Below are positions 1,572-37,027 of a stretch of DNA of 64,000 nucleotides, in pieces (the first letter of the stretch is position 1; the number at the start of each line of letters is the position of its first letter). This stretch comes from Eledone cirrhosa (Eukaryota), in NCBI GenBank assembly GCA_964016885.1, contig OZ024742.1:8618001-8682000 (forward strand). The letters run 5' to 3'. Under the pieces are notes generated by a model. It saw nothing but the letters and a program-made list of their open reading frames with translations, made no database searches and was not told the origin of the DNA. The position numbers and the translations under genes are program-made.

Positions 1572-3080
1572 ATGTCTTTCGCTGAAACAGTGAACAAAAA
1601 ACAAGATTTTATAAATCTTGACATGTCCAATGCAAGAGATATGCTCCAGCAAGTGAGAACATTTGTAACCTTCGAAGACAAGGGTGGGTTTAGAATTAAA
1701 TCACCTCTCGAAATAAAAGAAGAGACAGTTCGAAGGACTGTGACCTTCAGGAATGTCTCCATCACATCGAGAAAGCCAATATGTGTTAGTCAAGGAGACA
1801 TAGAAGCCACCTTGAAGGAGACTATAACAAATATTGACTTCCTTCAACGAGGAAAACAGTACGGAAGTGTTTCCGTACTGTTTAAAAGCGAGGCACTCTC
1901 CCCAAAACATTCTGTGACACCAATGGTGTCAAAAGCATTCACCTTTTTCCCTACGTACATGGGGAAAAGGACACAAAAAAAAATATATATATACCACCAA
2001 ACATTAACATCTGGTGGATCTTGGCTGGCTTCGTGGAACCAGAGACTAATACTATTCTTTCAATACAAAAGTCTATTAGACAAAGGTGGGCGGGTACTGA
2101 TTTGGAGATTCTGATGCAAATGAGGCCGGAGAGAATCTCCAAAATACCCGAAAAAGTCGTCATCAACGACAACAACGAAATAAACATTTCGGTAGAGGGG
2201 TGTAAACTTCATTGCTTTCTCTGTGGTAGCACAGCTCACCTAAAAGCCTCCTGTCCTTCACAAACACACCACAACAACATCATTAAAAAAACACTATTAC
2301 CAACACCAACATCAAAACAACCACCACCACAAGTAAAGCAACAGACGAAACGAGCAAACACACCAACACAAACAGCCACTCAACCAACAACAACAGACAA
2401 CACCCCTGAAGAACACAGCCCCACCCCATCCCACTCCATCAAACACTACCACAAACACACACACCGAAACACCACACATCATACTCCTACCCCACACTCC
2501 TGACGATGATTATTCATTAACAGATGAGGCTGCTTCTTTTCTTTAATTGAAGAAGGAGAGCCTCGGAAATCTAGAGACACCACAAAACCCCCAAAACTCC
2601 AATCACCAACACCAACATACCACCACAGACTCAAACAACAACACAAACAACAACACAAACAACACCACAGTCAAACATCCCCCTACCAACAAAACCAACA
2701 CCAACACCACCCCAAACACAAGCACCCACCATAAAAAGAAAACTCCCGGACGAACAACAAACTAAAACAACACAATAAAATCGCAAACAACAATACGCAT
2801 ACATCAACACAAACAACAAGAGTTTCATGGAGGTCATCTCCCAAAACCCCAAGGTGGAGACTGAGGACAAAACTTTCGTGAAAGCAGAATAGTCTCCACA
2901 CCTAAAACTAATAAGGGTTTCGATAGAAACCTATCAGAAATTGATAGAACAATTTTCGCAGAATGTTGGCAAAAACCTATTAACCGCGTCTTATTAAAAT
3001 GTTTCCCCACCCCACCCAACACCCCTACCAGAACTGAAATGGAGATTGAGCAACCCGATCTCCAAAAAACGAAAAGGTAA
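1572..3080 (+). pseudogene. Tx1 copy A ORF1 (zinc-knuckle nucleic-acid-binding protein), frameshifted
   Basis: ORF pieces 1572-2114 and 2021-2503 are homologous to ORF1 of copy C (SFA...TFFPTYMGK, RPERI, knuckle). Ends ...PDLQKTKR* at TAA 3078-3080. True start is upstream and not resolved. Confidence 0.8.
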
Positions 3081-3121
3081 GTGAACCTTTTCGTCCTTTT
3101 CGCCAACTCTTCACCACCAAC

Positions 3122-4032
3122 ATGGCTAGTTTACGAGTTGGAAGCGTGAATGTGCGTGGCCTAGGGATGCCCTGGAAACAGAGCCAACTTTTAAACGACC
3201 TTCTGTCACACGGTATGGATGTGAAAGCCATCAACGAGTCCAGGATCCACAACAGGCAGCAACTAACCCCCATCTTCGTCTCGCTGACGGAGCTGCAGTC
3301 CTGGGTCAAGAAAAGACCGAAAACGATGGACGCCTGGCACATTAAATGCTCTCAGGCGCTCACAGTCCTCTGGCATGCAGGCGCAATCAGTGGAGACTCC
3401 ACTTCGACATTCTATAGAGGGATTGTACGCTACAAGAGCGACGACGTGCTCGGAGAGACTCTGGGCGTCGAAGACGATGAGATTACCAGTCTGTTTGGTA
3501 GGACTTTCCGCCCGAGACCTATGGACAACTTCCAGAGGTCCCTGGGATAGCCGTGCTACCGAGGAGCTCTACCAGTTCGTGATAAGATCTACAGGCACGG
3601 ACACCCCGGCAGGGATCCTTCAAAGAGGACGTGTCCAAGATGCGCGCAGGACATTGAAACCGTCCTGCACGCAATTGTACACTTCTGTGGAACTATGCAG
3701 AACAACTGTTGTTGCGTATGGGTCAAATCGAGTTGACTGCCGAGTCCATAGTAAGGATCAAACCGCCAGCCTCTTTCAAAAACGAAAGAGAGGCGGTTTT
3801 CCTCTGTACAGTGGCTATGGTGAAAGAAGGTATATGGTGGACGAGATTGAGATGACTGAAGACAGATGCCTTTCTCTCCGGACAACAATTGATTCCCTTC
3901 TTTAAGTATCACTTTAGAAGGAGAATCAGAGTGGAGAGAGAGGCACTGCACCCCAGTAAATTTACTGAAAGGTGGGTAAATGAAGAGAAAATGACCCGAG
4001 TGATTGGGCCTTCTCTGTTTATAAGCCTGTAG
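3122..4032 (+). pseudogene. Tx1 copy A ORF2 remnant (APE N-terminus fused to C-terminal region)
   Basis: ...RQQLTPIF joins directly to VSLTELQSWVKKRP; the whole RT is missing; stops and frameshifts follow. Confidence 0.85.
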
Positions 4033-5545: not shown

Positions 5546-7385
5546 ATGGCTGAAGCATCTTCACCATCAATCAAAGAAGGAAAGGGGAAGTCATACTCAC
5601 AGCTTTCCCTGCCACTGTCACAGCAGCAGATGCCAAAGGCAGAGGTCAGAGAGAGGAAGAATTGTCTTCACCTGTTGACCGACCACTAGATGTAGCCACA
5701 ACTATACAAGAAATTGAAAACAACAACAACAACAACGACAACAACAGCAACAATAAAGACAACAAAAACAACAACAACACAAACGTCACAAGTACCCACA
5801 CACCAAACGAGAAAGACAACAACAACAACAAAGATGAAAACAACTCAAACGACGAGAAACAAAACAATACAAACACCAACAACGAAAACAAAATATCTTT
5901 TGCACAAACGACTAAATTATCAGTCGCGTATGTGCTGGAAGATATTTCAAAAGCAAAAGAAATGCTGGAAAAAGCCAAGAAATATGTATCTTTTGGCGAA
6001 AACGGTTCGTTTTCTATACATTCACCTCCAGAACTAAAATAACAGACGGAATTACGAACTGTCGTATTCCGTACAATTTTAAATAAAACAAAAAAACCAG
6101 CACAACCATCTCAAGCTGAAATTCAATTAGTACTGAAAGAAGCGATGAGAGACATCACATTTATACAAAAGGATAAACTCTATGGGAGTTTATCCATATT
6201 GATGAAAGACGAATTGGCGGCGAAGAAATACTCTGTGTCGCCAATTCGTTCCAAACACTACACCTTCTTCCCCACCTACATGGGTAAAAAAACCCAGAGA
6301 ATATGGATAACCACCATCACCCCAAACATAAACTACTGGTGGTTACTAACCGGTTTCCTCAATCTAGACGAGGACAACCTCATTTCAATAGGAAAGGCAT
6401 CCGGCGACGCGTTCAGTGGAACGAGCATCGAAGTTCTGACCCAAATAAGGCCAGAACGTATCGCCCAAATCCCTGAGCGCGTCATGCTGGATGACCGTAC
6501 CCACCTCAACATTATTGTGGAGGGTAGGCGTCTCTCCTGTTACCTCTGTGGCAATAGAGGTCACCTGAGGGCTGCCTGTCCCCAGCTCACACAGAAAAAA
6601 AAACACTGCTACCAACACCAATACCACCCCAACAACAACAACAAAAACCAACGACACCACCACCACCACCACCACCACCACAACAACAACAACAACAAAC
6701 ACGTGAAAAAAATAACACAGAATACTGTCCCACCCAATCCCTCCCCACCCAAAACAAATACAAAAACACACACACCGCAAACACTACCAGAAAACATACC
6801 CCTCCCACCCAACAAGGAAGACGAACCCCTTTCGTCGCAAGACGAAAAAGATCCCTTCCAACAAGTAAAAAGAAAGAAGAGGAGACGCACCACAGACACA
6901 CATGTAATCTTTACCCCCCCCCCCAAGAGAACACAAACTACACACAACAAACCACCCCTCCCTGTCACACGACACTAACTGCTACACAAAAAAAGACCTT
7001 ACAATATACATACATGAACACAGACAACAAAGAATTACGGAAAACAATTTCAGCAAACCCTTCGGTCCAAACTGAAGGGCCTAACTTTATAACTGCTGTG
7101 GGACTACCTCATTTAAAAATGATAAAAGTCCCAATGAACTTGTACAAAACACTGAAAATAAATTTCACGGAGGACGTGGGACCGCCCTGCGCCAAACCAA
7201 TCAACCGCGTCCTCCTAAAAAATGTCAGCCCCCCACCCCACCCAGACACCCACTCAACCACAAACACCCCAACCCCACAACACACCGATGCCCCTTCATT
7301 TCCACAAACCACCACCCCACCCAACAACCCATCCCCAACCAGCATGGAAATTGAGCGGCCCGTTTCCCGGGACGCAGAGAGGTAA
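5546..7385 (+). pseudogene. Tx1 copy C ORF1 (CCHC zinc knuckle), disrupted
   Basis: Pieces 5662-6042 and 6145-6978 are in the same frame separated by a stop, then 7014-7385. Knuckle CYLCGNRGHLRAAC. ATG at 5546 is an inferred start. Confidence 0.85.
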
Positions 7386-7409
7386 GTGCCTTTTCTCCTT
7401 ACCACCAAC

Positions 7410-10400
7410 ATGGCTGTGAGTAGGGTGTCTAAATGCGCGTGGCCTGGGCTCATCTTGGAAGCAAGCAATGCTTCTAAATGACCTCAGCTCACAATCTATA
7501 AATGTGATGGTCATCTGCGAGGCACGGATCAGCAACATGCGGCAGCTAGCCCCCACCTTTGACGACTTTGAGATGCACGCATCTCTCTGTCAGCCCGGAG
7601 GTGGGGGTGGGGTTGTCGTACTGCTGCAAAAGCATCTGGGCCTTGCAACACAGATAGTTCACTTGGACCCAGGGGGTCGACTGGTGGTGCTGGACCTTGG
7701 CAGTGGTGAAGGTGGAGCCTTTAGGCTGGTAGCCGCATATGCCCCTTTTGGGACAGAGCGGCCCGACTTTTTCCAGCGTCTGGAGTCTTTTCTAGGGACG
7801 TCCCGTTCCCTGCTTTTAGTGGGGGATTGGAATGGTATCCTGGATGCACGTTGGGACTATGCAGGGGCATGTCCCGATAGAGAGGGATGCAACAGCCTCA
7901 AGGGGTTACTCGGCCGATTTGATCTGGCCGATAGATTTCGACTAGATTTTCCGACGGTGCCAACCTGGTCTTGGTCAAATCGCAGCGGATCATCTAGGTC
8001 GTACCTAGATAGGTTTTTAGTTAGAAATAAGGACAGGGACATTTTAAGTTGTCCAGTAATGCTCATGGTTGGCTATTCAGACCACAAGTTGGTGACCTGC
8101 ATGGTCAACCTTGATAGAACGCATAGACAGGGCCCCGGTTACTGGAAGCTCAACTTGTCCTTGCCGGCAAGTGGAGCTTACAGGGATCGGATTAACACGT
8201 TAGTTAAGGAACGGTTGACTGGAGCGATCGTCAACAGCAGGTGGTGGGTATCTCTAAAGAGAGAGATTAGAGTAGTCTCGATAGAATTTAGTAAGGTTCT
8301 AGCTGCGGATAGGAATAGGAAGGAAAGGGAGCTAATAGATAGAGTAGAAGAGGCAATTAAAAGCGGCGACGTGGCCAGAGTGCTAGCGTCGAGAACGGCT
8401 TTGAGCCAGTTTTTCGAGGCGAAGCACGAAGGCTGCGTTGTCCGAAGTAAAATACGTGCTCTAGGGAACGAGGGGACCAAAGCTGTTAGCTGGGCCCGCG
8501 TGACAGAGGCCAACAGTGGAACTAAATCCACCATCCGGTCTTTGCGAGACCTGGATGGACGGGCGATTCTTGAGCCTAGGCAGATGTGTGAGGCCTTTCA
8601 AAGGCACTTTGCCCGATTGCTCGGGAGGGGCGGGGAGACGGTTGGGAACGTGGACTCCGGTCCATACCTCGACGGCCTGCCGCGTCTCTCGGAGAGGGAG
8701 GCGAAGTCCTGCGTGGAGTCGATTTCGGCCGCTGAGATAGAGGACGTGCTGAGCCAATGCGGCAAACGCAACTCCCCGGGTCTCGATGGTCTTCCTTACG
8801 AATTATATCTAGCTAGGCCGGACTTGTTCCCCGATCTCCTCGAGGCGGTCTACTGCAACTGGCAACAGAACGGGAGAATTCCCTGTACTGTGAGCAAGGG
8901 CGTAGTCACGCTAGTGAGGAAGGACGAGAACAAGGGGGACGAAATAAGTAACTTCAGGCCCATAACTCTGCTAAATACAGAGTTACAGATTTTGGCCAAG
9001 GTGCTAGCAAAGAGGTTGGCGCTTGTCGTGGGCAAGCTGGTGGGAGATGCGCAGACATGCGCTATCCCGTCCAGGTCCATCCATGACAACCTCCACCTCA
9101 TGCGATACATCATAGAGAGGGTTGGGAACGAACCCGGCTTTGGTGGGGCTCTGATCAACTTGGATCAATCTAAGGCGTTCGATAGGGTCGACCATGGTTA
9201 CCTGGATGCGGCTCTAGTGGCGGCAGGCTTCGGACCCGTTTTCAGGGGCTGGATCAATGCTATGCACAGCAGCCGCATCTGCGCTAGGGTCAAGGTGAAC
9301 GGCTACCTCTCGGAGCCGTTCAAAATCGCGCGGTCCATCCGACAAGGGTGCCCTCTCTCCTCCCTTCTGTATGTGTTGACTCTCGAGCCACTACTGCGGA
9401 AGTTGGAGTTGTTGCAGGGCATCCCTTTGGAACCGGGATTGCGGAAAGCGGTGTCGGTCTACGCCGATGACGTGACAGTAATGGTGTCGACGGCCTCCGA
9501 AATCGAGGTGGTCGGCACCTTACAGGAGGAGTACGAAAGGTTCACAGGGGCTAAGCTGAACCGGGACAAGTCTATCGGTTTGCAACGCGGCACGTGGAGG
9601 GGCAGACCGATGCCCTCCGATGGCGTCGTCGGACGCTGGACGGAGGGCCCGGTGAAGTTGCTCGGGGTCTGGTTCGGACCGGACCTCCAGGTGGACAAAA
9701 ACTGGGCGGAGGTTACGAACAGGGTGTTTGCACTGACCCAGAAGTGAGCCAGTTGCAAACTATCCCTGAAAGGTCGGGCGGAGGTGACGAACACCTATAT
9801 ACCGTCCGTCATCTACTACCGCCTGACCGTAGTGCCCTGCCCAAGGGAAACCCTCACCAAGATGGTGCGCGCTCTCTTCCAATTCCTTTGGAAGAGGCGG
9901 GCTCCTATGGTGAGGAGATCCATCTGCTGTCAACACCCTTCGAAAGGAGGGCTGGGGATGCCGTGGCTAATGATGCGTAAACACGCATTAAGGCTACGGC
10001 ACCTCTACGTATTCCTCACCGGACAACCGGTGTGGGCCTCGTTTGTGAGACGAACCTTTCCCAGACTCGTCTCACTCACCGAGCTGCAATCCTGGGTCAA
10101 GCAAAGACCGAGAAAACTGGGCGCCTGGCACACTGAGTGTGCCCAGGCGCTCACCGCCCTCTGGCAGGCGGATCCGGTCATCAGTGGAGAATCCACCGTA
10201 ACATTCTATAGAGGCTGGTACGCAGCAGGTGCGACGACGCCCTCAGAGAAGCCCTAGACATGGAGGAGGACGAACTGGCCGGCCTGTTCGGTAGGACATT
10301 CAGCCCGGGACCTATGGACAACTTCCAGAAGTCCCTGGCCTGGCAGTGCTACCGAGGGGCTCTACCCGTTCGAGAAAAGCTCTACAGACACGGGCGCCCG

Positions 10401-25658: not shown

Positions 25659-28600
25659 TTACAGATATATGCTCAGAGTAGGCCCATTCACTCGGGCCAT
25701 TCTTGCTTCTCTCACCCATCTTTCAACAAAATGCTGGGAAGAGAGCATTTCCCTCTCTACTCTGATTTTCCTTTTCAAATGAAATTTGAAAAAGTCAATC
25801 AGAGCATCACCGAAGAGGTAAGTGCTCGTCTTCAGCCCTTTCAAACGTGTCCACCATACTATCTCTTTCGCCATGGCCACCAGACAGATAAAAACTGCCT
25901 GCCCTTCCCGGCTAAAGGAGGAGGGCGGGGCAATCCTCACGATGGACTCAGATGATAGCCGGATCCGTCCTAAACGCGACAGCAGGTGTTCGACATAAAC
26001 CCACAAGTCACCAATTTTCGGACACTGGACGAGTGCGTGCAGGACGGTTTCGTCGCCCTGCGCGCATCTCGGACATGCCCGGCTGACGGCACCTCCATGC
26101 CTGTAGAGTTTATCCCGAACTGGCAAGGCTCCTGGGTAGCACTGCCAGGCCAGAGATTTCTGGAAGTTGTCCATAGGCCCTGGCCCGAAAGTTCTTCCGA
26201 AGAGATTGGCTAGTTGATTTTCGTCGACGCCTAGAGTTTCCCCAAGTACGTCGTCGCTCTTCCCCTCCACTAATCCTCTATAGAACGCCGAGGTGGAGTT
26301 TCCACCGATCACATTGCCCGATTGGTCGAGGGCTGTGAGCGCCTGAAGACATTCCAGTCTCCAGGCGCTCCCTCTCGGTCTTCGCTTGACCCAGGACTGC
26401 AGCTCCGTCAAGGAAACGAGCTGGGGAAATACGTGTCTAGCAAACGGCGACCACATCTGATCACCGTCGAGGAAGAGGTGGAGATGTCGTAGCCTGAGCG
26501 CGTGCCTGCGCATCATCAGCCACGGCATGCCCAGCCCTCCACGTAGCGGGTGTTGACAACAGATGGACCGCCTGACCATCGGAGCACGTCCCTTCCACAA
26601 AAAGCGAAAGAGCAAACGCTCCAGCGCAGTCAGGCGAGGCTTAGGACAAGGTACGACGGTCAGGCGGTAGCAGATGACAGACGCGATGTACGCGTTAGTC
26701 ACCTCCGCTCGACCTTTCAGGGATAGCTTCCTCTCCGCCCATTTCTGGGTGAGAGAAGCCACCCTGCTCGTCACCTCGTCCCAGTTTTTGTCCGTCTGGA
26801 GGTCCGGACCGAACCAGACCCCTAGCAATTTAACCGGTCCGTCCGTCCAGCGTCCGACGACGCTGTTGGACGGCATGGACCTGCCTCTCCAGGTGCCGAG
26901 CTGCAGGCCCACTGACTTTTCCTGGTTGATCATTGCTCCTGTCACCGCTTCGTATTCTCTTAGTGTAGTGCCGATCGCCTCGATGTGTTTGGCGTTCGAC
27001 ACCACTACGGTGACATCGTCCGCATATGCTGACACGGATCTTCCGCATCCTAGTTCGCGCGGGACTCCCCTCAACGTCTCCAGTTTGTGCAGTAATGGCT
27101 CGAGAGTCAATACGTACAAGAGGGACGAGAGGGGACATCCTTGGCGGACCGAGCGCATGATGTTGAACGGTTTCGACAGGTGACCGTTCACTCTCACCAC
27201 AGAGCAGATGTCGCTGTGCACGGCCGCGATCCAGCCTCTGAAGACGGGCCCAAAGCCAGCCGCCCTCAGGACTGCCTCTAGGTAACGATGGTCGACCCTA
27301 TCGAAAGCTTTCGACTGATCTAAATTGATCAAGGACCCACCCGTGCCAGGTTCCTTAGCTACCCTCTCTATGATGTATCGCATGAGGTGGAGGTTGTCGT
27401 GGATGGATCTGTCGGGAATGGCTCATGTCTGCGCCTCTCCCACCAGACCACCAACGACAAGCGCCAACCTCTTTGCTAGCACCTTGGCCAAAATCTTGAA
27501 CTCTGTGTTTAGCAGAGTTATGGGCCGGAAATTATCTATGTTATCCCCCTTGTTCGGATCCTTTCTCAGCAGTGCCACCGCTCCTCGGCTCACAGAACTG
27601 GGAATTCTCCCGTTCTGTTGCCAGTTGCAGTAGACGTCCGCCAAGAGGCCTCCGAACAAGTCTGGCATCTGTACGTAAAGTTCATAGGGCAGACGATCCA
27701 AACCAGGCGATTTACCCCTTGTGCAGCCAGTCATTGCCTCCCTTACTTCAGCGGCTGTTATCGGCTTTTCGCAACACTTCGCCTCAGTGGCCGAGAGCCG
27801 CGGCAGTCCGTCGAGGTAGACACTAAAGTCCATCCCTCTACCCGGCCCACCGCTGCCCCCGAACAGCTGAGCGAAGTGTCGCTTAAAAGCTTCACACATT
27901 TGCCCGGGATCGAGTAGCATGCGCCCGCCGTGGTCCACCAAAGACCGGATCGTGGGTTTGTTGCCACGACGCGCCTCCGCCACTCGGGCCCATTGAACGG
28001 CTTTCGTCCCCTCGTGTCTGAGAGCACGCACCCTTGCTCTGACAACGCAGCCTTCGTGCTTTGCATTGAAGAATTGGTCAAGGGCCAATTTCGCCGCAAG
28101 CACGTCGGTCGCAATGCCTTTGCTAAGCGCCTCGTCTAATTTTCTAACTAGTTCTCCCTCTGCTCTATTTTTCTCTATTGCTAAAGTCTTACTAAACCTA
28201 ATCGATTCTATTCTAATCGCTCTTTTCAGAGCAAACCACCACTTGTTGTTGACGATGGCCCCTGTCAACGCCCGCTTAACTAGTTCGCTAATCCGGTCTC
28301 TGTAGGCCTTGCGCGCTGGTAAGGACGCGTTTAGCTTCCAGTAGCCGGGTCCTCGTCTATGAAGCCTATCTAAGTCAAGCACACAGATCACGAATTTGTG
28401 GTCCGTGTAGCTGACTATCTTGAATTGTGGACAGCCTATGCTAGACCTATCTATTTCCCTACAAAATACTCTATCTAGATATGATCTGGATGACCCTATG
28501 CGATTTGTCCAAGTCCACATTGGCACATTCGGGAAATCCAATCGGTACCTGTCAGACAGTTCAAAAGGCCTGAGCAGGTTGGTGAGGCTCTTGCACCCTC

Positions 28601-29078
28601 CACCCCTATCCGCTAATCCCACACAGTCCCAGCGTGCATCTAAGATCCCGTTCCAGTCGCCCACTAACACTAAAAAGCGGGACGTTCCAAGAAAGGTCTC
28701 CAGACGCCGGAAGAAATCAGGCCGCCCTGCTCCTGTCGGGGCATAGGCGGCCACTAGCCTGAAAGCTTGCCCATCTCCGCTGGTCACGTCCAGCACCACC
28801 AGCTTACCCTCTGGGTCCAGGAAGATGGCCCGTAAGGCGAGATCCAAACCTCTCCGAAAAAGCACAGCAACTCCTCCACCCGATCCAGGACGGCTGGGAG
28901 ATGCGTACACATCGTAGCCGCCGAAGATCGGTGCGAAGGCCCGTGCTTTGGAGATTCTGGTCTCGCTGATGGCCACTACATCTATGTTTAGTGACCTGAG
29001 GTCGTTGAGCAGGTGACCCTGCTTCCATGACGACCCCAAGCCACGCGCATTTATGCTGCCTATTCTGAGTGAGGTCAT
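25659..29078 (-). pseudogene. Tx1 copy D ORF2 (APE + RT + Cys-rich), single premature TGA
   Basis: 27423-29078 and 25659-27383 are in the same frame; TGA at 27423-27425 replaces the Cys of AQTCAIP. GDWNG, TDHK, YADD and CPRC..H...C are intact. Confidence 0.95.
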
Positions 29079-29113
29079 GTTTAAAATAGAGTGGAAAAGA
29101 TGGGAAAGACCAC

Positions 29114-31201
29114 TTACCGTACTTTTCGTAGAGGAGGGATGGTTTTTACATCCCTTTTCACTTGATCGTCTGGTGAAGGGACCGTTGAATCGTCCCTTCG
29201 GCTGGTCGTCGGCTCTTCTAAGAGAATGTCTGAATATACTCTTCGATTGATGGTTCCTCCTAGGTCCCTGAAATCACCAACTGCGTTGGGGAATTTCGTT
29301 TTAATGTTTGTGTATTGTTTCTGTGCTATTTTTAGCAGTCTTATGTTAGTTGGCGTTTTGATTGGTGCTGGTATTATGTAGTCCTGTTGTGAAATGTCTG
29401 TGTGCTCAATTATGTAAGTCATTAGTTTCTTGTTGTGTGTATTTATTGCCGTGCATTTGTTTTTCTGGGGGTGGGGTGTGGTTCTGCTATTTTCTTGTCG
29501 TTGTTGCTGGGTGTGTGTGTTTTGTTGTTGTGTTTGCGATGTTGGTGCTTGTGGTGGTGGTGTTGAAGGTGTTGTTGGCGGTGGGGTTGTCGCCGGTGGT
29601 GATGGTGGTGCTAGTGTGGGTGGTGATGGTGTTGGTGGTGTTGCTGCTGTGGGTCTCTTTGCAGTAGACTTTACCCTTTTCTCATTTCTTTCCTCCCTTT
29701 TCAAAGGCGACGATGCGCTGCTTCTGCGTTTGTGCCTTCTTACGGCCTTTTGCCATCCCTCTCCCACCTCACACTCCATGTCTGATTCTGTGAGGTCGGG
29801 GAGGGGTACCAGCTCCACTCTTTCACTTGTTGTTGTTGGTGATGTTTGCACTGGAGTCTCTGTTGCAGCTGCATTTGGTATTGCTGTTGTTGTTGTTAAT
29901 ATTTCCACTGCTGCTGCTGTTTTTGATTTCCGTGGCGTGGGTATGGGTGCCACGGACCTATCGTTCCTGGTTGCCGCTTGTCCTGTTGCTGGTAGCCGTG
30001 GAGCCGGATTCGGAAGGAGGGGGGTTTTCTCCTTTCTCAGGGTCTTCTCGTTGCAGAAGGCCCTGAGGTGAGTCTTCGATCCACAGCGAAAGCATTTCGG
30101 GCGTTTGCCCTCAACACTTATGGGCAGTTGAGTGCCGTTATCGAAGTCTATCACATCCGGGATAGCTTCGATGCACTCCTGGTTGGTTTGGATTAGCATC
30201 TCAATGGAGGTGCCGACCCAATCTTCTCTTACTTTTTTCTGTACTTGCAGTACAGTTCTTTTGTCCTCGATTCCGACGAGGACAGACGCGGCCAGCCAAG
30301 AAGGGGCCATTCCGGGGGGGACGTGGGTCAGTTTGACCCTCACAATTTTTTGCCCGCAGTAGGAGGGCACAAACACCATTTCCTCGCGCCTTAGGGTCAC
30401 TACAGATCGGGCCTTTGCCTCCTGGGGTGTGGCAAAAAGTACGTCTACGGTGGCATATTTTTTGCCTCGGGTGATGTGCGTTTTCCGCTGCCACACAGAC
30501 CCCAAGGCTTTTTGTATTTGGGCCTCTGTGGCTCTTTCCACCCTACGGGATTTTGTACTTACTGTACGGTACGTGACCGTACAGTGCTGTTGGGTTTCGA
30601 AAAATGTTTCCGCTGCCTTGCAGATTGCTCGGTGTCCATTCTTTGTCACCATCTTCTTCGCTTCCTCTAATTCCTCATTTGTTATGAGGATTGTTTCCAA
30701 GTTTTTCGCAATACCTGCAAATGAGATTGGTTTTTCTTTGCTGCTGTTGTTGTCGTCAGAGCTTTTGTTGTTGCTGCAGGTACTACGACTACTGCCTTCG
30801 CCGCTGTTGCTGTGGTTGTTGTTGGTGTTGCTGCTGCTAATGCTGTTGTTGTTTATGCTGCTGGTGATGCTGTTGCGGCTGCTACTGTTGTTTTCATTGT
30901 CACTGTTGCTGTTGTTATTACGGCTGCTACTGCTATTATTCCTGACGTCAGACGAATGAACTGGGTTTTCGTATTTCCCGCACACCTGTTTCGTCGCTGT
31001 CGTCGTCGTCGTGGAGAAACCTTGCACGCTTTGCACGAGACTTTTCTTTTCTTTCGTCGCTTGCGAAAGAGAAGGGAGGGAGAGAGACACATTTAAAGAA
31101 GGGAGGGAGAGAGACAATCTTCTCTCTGCTGTAGTGATGATTGAGGAAGTAGAAGACGGAATGAGTGGGAGTGACCTATGCAAATTCTTTTTCGCAGCCA
31201 T
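29114..31201 (-). CDS. Tx1 copy D ORF1, CCHC zinc-knuckle protein
   Basis: Uninterrupted frame; first ATG (MAAKKN) at 31201; knuckle CFRCGSKTHLRAFC. Confidence 0.9.
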   Translation of the reverse strand: MAAKKNLHRSLPLIPSSTSSIITTAERRLSLSLPSLNVSLSLPSLSQATKEKKSLVQSVQGFSTTTTTATKQVCGKYENPVHSSDVRNNSSSSRNNNSNSDNENNSSSRNSITSSINNNSISSSNTNNNHSNSGEGSSRSTCSNNKSSDDNNSSKEKPISFAGIAKNLETILITNEELEEAKKMVTKNGHRAICKAAETFFETQQHCTVTYRTVSTKSRRVERATEAQIQKALGSVWQRKTHITRGKKYATVDVLFATPQEAKARSVVTLRREEMVFVPSYCGQKIVRVKLTHVPPGMAPSWLAASVLVGIEDKRTVLQVQKKVREDWVGTSIEMLIQTNQECIEAIPDVIDFDNGTQLPISVEGKRPKCFRCGSKTHLRAFCNEKTLRKEKTPLLPNPAPRLPATGQAATRNDRSVAPIPTPRKSKTAAAVEILTTTTAIPNAAATETPVQTSPTTTSERVELVPLPDLTESDMECEVGEGWQKAVRRHKRRSSASSPLKREERNEKRVKSTAKRPTAATPPTPSPPTLAPPSPPATTPPPTTPSTPPPQAPTSQTQQQNTHTQQQRQENSRTTPHPQKNKCTAINTHNKKLMTYIIEHTDISQQDYIIPAPIKTPTNIRLLKIAQKQYTNIKTKFPNAVGDFRDLGGTINRRVYSDILLEEPTTSRRDDSTVPSPDDQVKRDVKTIPPLRKVR

Positions 31202-31417
31202 GTTGACTTTTTTGTTTAAAATAAATATTGGGTACAAAACCCCAATAAGCAGTTATTTAACCCCGAAGGGCCAAATAACGGGCAGAAAGACCCCTCTCAC
31301 GAGGAGGAGGGTGTTTTTGTCTACAAGTTGGTCTAAGTTTTAAACAATTTACAATTGTTAAAGCGTTCAAAATTTACAGTACCTTACAGAGTCGAGCCTC
31401 CGTCAACCATAGCATTC

Positions 31418-31452
<35 letters not shown>

Positions 31453-34700: not shown

Positions 34701-35155
34701 ACAATCGCAGCGTGCGTCTAAGATGCCATTCCAGTCCCCGGCTAACAGTAAAGGGCGAGACGTACCCAGAAAGGTCTCCAGGCGCCTAAAGAAGTCAGGT
34801 CGTCCGGCCCCTGTAGGGGCGTAGGCGGCCAGCAGTCTAAAGGCACCACCTTCGCTACTGCTCACATCCAAGACCACCAACTTACCGTCCGGGTCCCGGA
34901 AGATCGACCTTACCTCGAGATCCAGTCCTTTCCTAAACAGCATTGCCACCCTACCCCCATTCCCGGCCTGCTAACAGATGCGAAGATCTGATAGTCGTCG
35001 AAAATGGGGGCTAGTGCACGCGTGTCAGAAATTCTGGTCTCGCTTACGGCAATCACATCCATTTCCAGCGACCGGAGGTCGTTGAGCAGGCGACACTGCT
35101 TCCAGGGTGACCCCAGGCCGCGAACATTTAAACTTCCTACTCTTAATATGGCCAT
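31728..35155 (-). pseudogene. Tx1 copy E ORF2, disrupted
   Basis: MAILRVGSLNVRGLG start; GDWNG, SDHK, YADD. Frameshifts at ~34950, ~34670, ~34600 and ~31805; TAG at 33687. Confidence 0.93.
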
Positions 35156-35164
35156 ATTGGTAAG

Positions 35165-36421
35165 CTAAGAGAGAGAGAGGGAAGGTTTACTTACCTCCCG
35201 GGTCTTGTGAAGGTCGGGTGGTTCGACCTCCATGGTTGGTGGGGTTTCTTTTGGGAACCCCTTTAAAAGTCTTGATGTGGGTTTCACATTCTGGTTTCCC
35301 ACGTCTTGAGGAAAGCTCTCTCGAATTTCTTTGAAAGAATTGAGTGACATTCGGACCAGAAGCAAATCTTCTGGCACGCAAAATGTGCTCATTTCAAAAA
35401 TCTCCCCCTCTGTTTGAATGTCCTCGCTTCGCGCTAAGAGGGCCATCAGTTTATCGTTGGCCCTTCTGACAAGCACGAAGTTTTTAACATTTTGTTGGTG
35501 TGGTTTTATTTGTTTTCGTTTTGGTGAAGGTGGTGGCGATGGTTTTGGTGGTGTTGTTTCGGGTATGTCTATGTTTGTTGTAGGTGTGGTGTCTGCAATT
35601 TCAGGTATTTGTGTGTTTATTTGTACTTGTGTTTGTTTAGGTTGTTTGCGTTTCGGGGATTGTGGAGGTGGTGTCGATGTTGCTGATGGTGCTGATGTTA
35701 TTGGGGAAGTGTCTGCGTTAGTGGTGTCTGTATTTTTTGTTGTGTGCGTTTTTGTGTTTTGTAGGGGCTTTTTTTTTTTGTGTGAGTTTTCTCTCTTTTT
35801 TTGCACTTTTAGGTTTTCCTTCATCTTCGCTGCTGGAAGACAAAGGGTCTGTGTCTGTGAGTGTCTCTGTGTCTGTGTGTGCGTTTATTTTTTTTTGTCT
35901 ATGTATATAGTTGGGGGGGGGGGGGGGGGGTAGGGGGAGTAGGAGAGCTTTCCTCGTGTTCTCCTTCGATTGGTTTTGGTGTTGGTGGTGATCCGGCTGC
36001 TTTTGATGTTGGTGTCCGTGTTTTTGTTGATGTTGTTTTTGGTGGTGGTGGTGGTGCAGCTTTCCGTGCTGACACTGGCGTTGGCAACAAAGGAGGTTTG
36101 CGACCCCCTGCATTTTTGCGCTGAGGGCAGAAGGCTTGAAGATGCGTGGCTTCCCCGCAAACGAAGCAGCGTGGCCTTCTTCCGTCAATCATTAGTTGGA
36201 TTGTTGTCCCGTCCTGTAGGCGGGCAAAATCTGGGATGTTATTTATATCCTCCGGTTTCATTTGGAGAAGAATCTCCAAATCCATTCCGGACCAGTCTTC
36301 TCTCTCTGTCCTTTTGATGTCCAGGAGGGTGGTGTCTGTCCCCTCCTCGATTACGCATCCCAGCAGCCACCATATGTTCATTCCTGGTGGGATGCTGGGA
36401 ATGCGTACCTTCACTGTCCTT
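35165..36421 (-). pseudogene. Tx1 copy E ORF1 3' part
   Basis: IPPGMNIWWLL...GRRPRCFVCG is homologous to the other ORF1s; frameshift in the G-run at ~35913-35930. Confidence 0.85.
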
Positions 36422-36459
<38 letters not shown>

Positions 36460-36470
36460 TATTATTATTA

Positions 36471-36968
36471 TTCTGAGAAATGGTATGAGCATAGGCCAGA
36501 GGCGGTGATGGAGAACAATCAGGTGAAGGTGCTGTGGGATTTTAGGATACAGACGGACAAAAAACTGGAACACAATAGACCTGACCTGGTGGTTGTGGAC
36601 AAAGAAAAAAGATCGTGTCTGATTGTGGATGTGGCCTGCCCGTTCGACACGAGAGTGCAAGAGAAGGAGAGGGAGAAAATTAACCGATACCAGGACCTAA
36701 AGTGGGAGGTGAAAAGGATTTGGAACTGCCATGAAGTCAAAGTGATCCCGATTGTCATAGGCGCACTGGGGACTATCTCCAAAAGTTTCCAGGGATGGTT
36801 AAAGAAGATCGGCCACTCCACGCTTTTTGGAACGCTTCAAAAGGCATGCTTGCTTGGAACAGCAAGAACCCTCCGATACGTCCTGAATATCTGAGGCTGC
36901 AGGTAGTGGCTTGATATTCAATCCAACGGACTTTCCAGTTAACCAACATCAATGACTGAGATTCAAGG
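36471..36968 (+). mobile_element. Dong/R4 3' fragment (~500 bp)
   Basis: Nearly identical to 24890-25387; (AAT)n tail. Confidence 0.95.
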
Positions 36969-36977
36969 AATAACAAC

Positions 36978-37027
<50 letters not shown>

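Follow-up and report, generated by a model that had tools for sequence, protein, structure and literature searches.

A 5′ splice-site consensus is kept at the boundary between ORF1 and ORF2 throughout a lineage of L1-clade LINEs in Eledone cirrhosa. The motif is lineage-wide and beyond chance, and the site is very probably real, selected, and recognized by the spliceosome. Judging from sequence, its main job would be that of a U1 docking site, an orphan 5′ splice site on unspliced RNA (a reading to which we give a probability of about 0.5), and the donor probably lacks any fixed acceptor to pair with within the element. We also consider it rather probable that new LINE families are born via the spliceosome in read-through RNA from tandem arrays, and that one abundant family, D1, arose in this way.

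The analysis started from a 64,000-nt stretch of contig OZ024742.1 (positions 8,618,001 to 8,682,000; here called the window) and its four LINE copies, A, C, D, and E, and was extended by genome-wide sampling of the 3.0-Gb genome. A domain search placed APE, RT, and zf-RVT domains in ORF2 of these copies, and the best PDB match of ORF2 was human L1 ORF2p (E 3.5e-52). They are L1-clade LINEs, with an ORF2 that has an N-terminal APE, an RT, and a C-terminal zinc domain, and a separate ORF1 upstream (688 open codons in stretches L197 and L200, with a CCHC motif in translation). They share with L1/Tx1 elements the order of ORF1, short spacer, and ORF2 with APE/RT/zf-RVT, and may also share insertion into microsatellites; the insertion sites of the element copies read were (ATT)n or (TATC)n, and the genome is rich in microsatellites. 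The closest named protein match for the D endonuclease was an Octopus sinensis gene model containing a piece of this endonuclease, and no further matches were found in one metagenome scan or in a viral scan. Near-identical D contigs occur at low depth in two runs (X4 and X6) labeled as two other organisms, reflecting either contamination or a close relative.

An earlier note on this DNA had reported GGTAAGT at the ORF1 end of all four copies, with a pyrimidine tract and the ATG of ORF2 behind it, and both observations were borne out. The motif lies at 3076 to 3082 (+) in copy A (family A1; GT at 3077, ORF2 ATG at 3122), at 7381 to 7387 (+) in copy C (GT at 7382, ORF2 ATG at 7410), at 29112 to 29118 (−) in copy D (family D1; GT at 29117), and at 35189 to 35195 (−) in copy E (family E0; GT at 35194, ORF2 ATG at 35155). 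In A, C, and D, the TAA of the motif ends ORF1, as had been claimed; in E it does not, since ORF1 runs through the donor to a stop at 35167 to 35165 (−). This had been put down to a 1-nt slip, but it is the normal state of the family, as 24 of 30 E relatives read TRE/VSKPSLSLS followed by a stop (here and below, the slash marks the donor boundary). Copy C is indeed damaged at its junction and does not give a 53-nt interval, as 5 nt of the ORF2 start present in intact relatives are missing. In D, ORF1 (29114 to 31201, −) has low-complexity ends and a CCHC knuckle in translation, and a pyrimidine-rich spacer without an internal AG (29079 to 29113, −) leads from its stop to the ATG of ORF2 (25659 to 29078, −), which encodes the APE endonuclease, RT, and zf-RVT and in this copy has a single internal stop codon near 27423.

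For genome-wide sampling of junctions, we searched with a pattern that was anchored at the start of ORF2 and took no account of the donor, which gave 11,087 matches against 2,093 for a reversed control. The first 100 of these matches were read by eye; 95 were LINE and 5 were not, and G/GT[AG][AG]GT was present in 87 of the 95 L1-clade junctions, so that the donor proved to be conserved across genomic families. Forty genomic stretches were retrieved and sorted by hand into about 14 families, among which the distance from donor to ORF2 ATG is 28 to 47 nt. In 14 family representatives, donor positions −1, +1, +2, +5, and +6 are invariant and +3 and +4 vary between A and G only; just behind, at +8 to +11, pairwise identity is 0.29 to 0.47, and the spacer varies in both length and sequence. 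To look further afield, 80 L1-clade loci were collected from metagenomes and the 40 with an ORF2 start were checked; a donor of the G/GT type was found in 1 and missing in 39, which sets the present elements apart from their distant L1-clade relatives.

The reading frame in which the motif stands is not constant. The donor is in phase 2 in D1, D2, A, C, F7, F8, and F9, where ORF1 ends in R-stop; in phase 1 in F6, F10 (643 to 644 open codons in ORF1 of two copies), E1, and E2, where ORF1 ends in GK-stop or GE-stop; and in phase 0 in E0, where ORF1 continues nine codons beyond it. Frames of decayed copies were assigned from a common MEI/VExP motif. Because the motif is kept across all three ORF1 phases, it does not simply result from the stop codon.

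Neutral descent from a shared ancestor, with the stop codon keeping part of the sequence in place, is very unlikely to account for the motif. The families are only moderately diverged, which would suit such an account (pairwise identity at four-fold sites between families is 56%), but just 7 of 61 four-fold sites in ORF2 are invariant across 13 representatives, and over a third-position tree length of 2.8 the rough probability that the three protein-free donor positions were fixed by chance is 0.0002 to 0.002; moreover, the adjoining spacer changes in length and sequence, and the frame shifts. A second alternative is that the motif, the pyrimidine tract, and a good ATG context together form a translation signal for ORF2, driving termination-reinitiation or internal entry, and that the likeness to a donor is incidental. 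L1 ORF2 is translated by reinitiation. A UAAUG coupling at the ORF1/ORF2 boundary of SART1 likewise acts in translation, as described in part of PMC3894237, and the constant nearness of the ATG (28 to 47 nt), with the ORF1 stop always inside or just behind the motif, fits this idea. Whereas the boundary signals of SART1 and L1 act in translation, however, the motif here fits U1 independently of frame: its variants (GTAAGT, GTGAGT, GTAGGT, and AG at −2/−1) are those that U1 pairing tolerates, it is kept where its TAA is not a stop, and the chimeric joints described below are located at the GT. We therefore regard a translation signal as distinctly unlikely.

The fit to U1 was scored against the 5′ end of the host's own U1. 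Of 266 to 375 GT sites, the donor ranks first, alone or tied, in 9 families out of 12 and second in the other 3, it has the complementarity to the host U1 5′ end expected of a U2-type 5′ splice site, and the spacer behind it is 78 to 85% pyrimidine. The match to U1 supports the 5′ splice-site reading of the earlier note and plain U1 binding, which it had named as an alternative. Donor-like sites were also seen 28 to 37 nt from the 5′ end in six families (L166, L173, L184, L188, L198, and L200), whose 5′ UTRs look dissimilar; such a site lies further in for two families and is absent in F6. In D, this second, weaker donor-like site is at 31382 to 31387 (−), about 30 nt from the 5′ end, and no spliced products of the D1 5′-end donor were found among 22 variants. 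These 5′-end sites may suggest a broader use of U1 by the elements.

The earlier note had proposed that an intron of 53 nt is removed at this donor, fusing ORF1 to ORF2. L1 proteins act on their own mRNA (cis preference; described in part of PMC5860796), and with a cis preference of the L1 type, a spliced fusion mRNA should be copied back into the genome. Unspliced junctions numbered at least 1,801 for D1 and at least 2,288 for D2. No intron-less forms were found among 11 + 44 D1/D2 copies with an altered +1 base, and no spliced form among 7 D1 copies altered at +2, 18 D copies with a pyrimidine at +3, or 30 copies altered at the acceptor. Among 19 A and 6 A/F variants there was no clear spliced form and one ambiguous deletion; the variant searches needed exact flanks and missed old copies. 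The ambiguous deletion, in A copy L328, ends one base off a donor-to-+83 splice. A search for a longer fused protein close to D ORF2 found none, although this is a weak test. When contigs from runs of unrecorded kind were compared with D, one ran unbroken across the donor, and the rows listed, which covered 15 of 26 joints, included neither a joint nor a loose end there, contigs being prone to drop rare forms.

Removal of such an intron is highly improbable. An AG ending at 53 nt is present in A, D, and E, as claimed, but it is not conserved across families, and while D1, D2, and A1 have an in-frame YAG at 53, 52, and 53 nt, and F8 and F9, whose donor is in phase 2, an in-frame CAG 7 nt ahead of the ATG (at 31 to 38 nt), the Arg/Ser and R-V/I-G codons that open ORF2 readily supply in-frame AGs. 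Candidate lengths run from 30 to 61 nt; the interval is 42 nt in intact C relatives and the codon-5 AG falls 42 to 61 nt from the donor across families, so neither the length nor the phase that had been proposed is conserved. Splicing would be out of frame in F6 at 54 nt, at the F10 CAG, and in E0 at 53 nt, where it had been thought to join the frames, since E0 ORF1 stops at 35165; A2 has no in-frame AG within 90 nt, a lack that the earlier note had itself named as telling against its proposal. Furthermore, the pyrimidine tract stands directly behind the donor rather than ahead of the AG, and there is no intron-less form among about 4,100 D junctions, though cis-copying would be expected to leave some. 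No minimum intron size for the host was found, the available part of PMC10700109 giving the median only. A branch-point-like motif and a CAG 7 nt before the ORF2 ATG were seen in the spacers of F5, F8, F9, and F10 (L171 to L173, L180 to L187), 28 to 38 nt from the donor, and this CAG could accept a more distant donor. The donor might instead be used with a distant acceptor (inside ORF2, at the ORF2 stop, in the 3′ UTR, or beyond), in which case regulated splicing would remove ORF2 and leave a short ORF1-only mRNA in the style of the Copia short GAG. The chimeras suggest that the donor is able to splice, 12 of 13 representatives retain a pyrimidine-TTAG at ORF2 +415, and D has a U-tract-CAG in its 3′ UTR. 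Use of the +415 site, however, would yield a stop with phase-2 and phase-0 donors and an in-frame fusion lacking 138 endonuclease residues with phase-1 donors, and among 102 conserved Leu codons there are 32 at least as fixed as the one at this site; the 3′ UTR AG is absent from the A2, F7, and F9/F10 tails read, and no retrocopy joined to an in-element acceptor was seen among the copies searched. We consider an ORF1-only mRNA unlikely. Acceptors at ORF2 +83, at +415, and near the ORF2 stop were each dropped for want of a consistent product and of any retrocopy; the products at +83 and +415 vary with donor phase, and many other codons are as fixed as theirs. The family comparison yielded no conserved acceptor inside the element beyond the donor, and no conserved canonical poly(A) signals downstream of it, ORF2 included, which also counts against a protective role for U1; D1, C, F8, F9, and F10 have a terminal poly(A) signal only. 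At the level of sequence, the fixed acceptor and premature poly(A) site of the Copia short-GAG type were thus not found.

Two families proved to be out of register with related ones when their ORF1 ends were compared. Upstream of 29161, D1, the family of copy D, is 89 to 92% identical to F6c (6 copies), and ORF1 of copy D is F6c-derived down to this point; downstream of the joint, D1 is 96% identical to D2, whereas D1 and D2 share 66% upstream of it and D1 and F6c share 82 to 84% in ORF2. The D2-derived segment of copy D spans 43 nt (29118 to 29160, −), its 5′ edge (29161/29160) being the chimeric joint. Exactly there, F6c has GTAAGT and D2 has a CAG just before, and we infer that this joint is a fossil splice junction between an F6c donor and a D2 CAG. 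In the second family, C2 (19 of 33 rows), an F5-type exon end is joined to a C4 segment that is preceded by CAG in 18 of 21 rows of the acceptor parent, with 93 to 97% identity downstream; no donor-bearing ORF1 parent was found for its main subtype, C2a, the best candidate reaching 79%. A third case, C2′ (3 copies), turned up in a search that specifically targeted exon ends; its ORF1 is 95 to 97% identical to F5 and is joined at the C-rich tract-CAG site of C2, but its first unit is as close to the donor-less C2b as to F5, making it the weakest of the three. Of 157 distinct junctions, only D1, C2, and C2′ represent out-of-register gains present in more than one copy; the others are single-copy deletions. 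At every chimeric joint the microhomology is limited to 2 nt, AG. Template switching could therefore have made the joints, but only by striking the donor on every occasion.

A substrate for splicing between elements is available, as mixed-family head-to-tail arrays exist: in the window, the (ATT)n tail of E (31418 to 31450, −) lies directly upstream of D, placing the two families in tandem; L197 is another such array; and F6 and D2 matches were found 5.6 to 6.2 kb apart. The chimeric joints look like fossil splice junctions between tandem elements. In human L1 SpIREs (described in part of PMC5860796), spliced LINE RNA was likewise retrotransposed and left exact donor-acceptor joints in the genome; those splices lie within the 5′ UTR/ORF1 of one element and lose needed sequence, whereas the joints here link two families, and D1 became abundant.

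We propose that U1 snRNP docks at the donor of the unspliced bicistronic RNA, aided by the U/C tract behind it. Docked U1 would most likely suppress premature cleavage and help the polymerase through the ORF2 half, and it may also limit export and hence ORF2 output. Where elements stand head to tail, a read-through transcript would sometimes be spliced between one element's donor and a cryptic CAG that lies shortly before the donor of the next, giving an RNA with a new ORF1, an intact spacer, and ORF2, which could retrotranspose in cis and found a new family, as D1 may have done. To survive, a joint would have to leave ORF1 whole and the ORF2 start undamaged, and this may be why the acceptors lie just upstream of the next donor. 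On our best reading, ORF1 swapping would be a by-product of the orphan U1 site.

A parallel is offered by Arabidopsis EVD, a Ty1/Copia element with a conserved U1 site near the end of its structural ORF and an unspliced genomic RNA, in which U1 at the GAG-end donor blocks premature termination (described in part of PMC5580714). EVD differs in having a fixed acceptor and in needing splicing to create its GAG stop; the present elements are non-LTR, their stop exists without splicing, and neither a conserved acceptor nor a nearby poly(A) site turned up. RNA that keeps an unspliced 5′ splice site can also be retained in the nucleus and destabilized, according to part of PMC4380460. An orphan donor therefore looks costly, which counts against U1 docking, although nuclear hold by the unspliced donor could also limit ORF2. 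Escape from HUSH silencing was considered and dropped, protection without a 5′ splice site being reported in part of PMC8770142. An internal promoter ahead of the donor was dropped as well: 5′ truncation nearby was seen in 8 of 21 rows, but the search pattern had excluded C-rich full-length copies.

Our literature search found no description of the motif or of splice-made LINE families, most subscription papers and Repbase reports being outside its scope. Active L1-Tx1 families are described in the O. vulgaris repeat annotation (PMC13282606), the available portion of whose main text makes no mention of splicing, introns, or ORF1. The findings bear on how LINEs balance ORF1 against ORF2 output and how ORF1 and 5′ modules are swapped. 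A U1 site maintained by selection between the two ORFs would represent a kind of control that the literature search did not find for non-LTR elements, and exact donor-to-CAG chimeras offer a testable route for module swapping without DNA recombination or template switching. Host transcripts, too, could be influenced by the thousands of strong orphan donors in this long-intron genome.

The window contains several other repeats. An element at 17261 to 19830 (−), which we take to be Penelope-like, has 512-nt direct terminal repeats and, by eye, RT-like and GIY-YIG-like frames, with no Pfam hit. A further non-LTR element at 22762 to 25414 (+), possibly Dong/R4, has an RT nearer R2 than L1; its 3′ fragments lie at 36470 to 36995 and near 47100 to 47350, and it shares its (ATT)n tails with D and E. 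Palindromic MITE-like long repeats were seen in an AT-rich stretch (15178 to 15700, 16067 to 16362, and 20206 to 20321). Two long arrays of a similar 21-nt unit, at 37161 to 46197 (about 430 copies) and 48159 to 63995 (about 755 copies), lie on opposite strands and face each other across about 2 kb.
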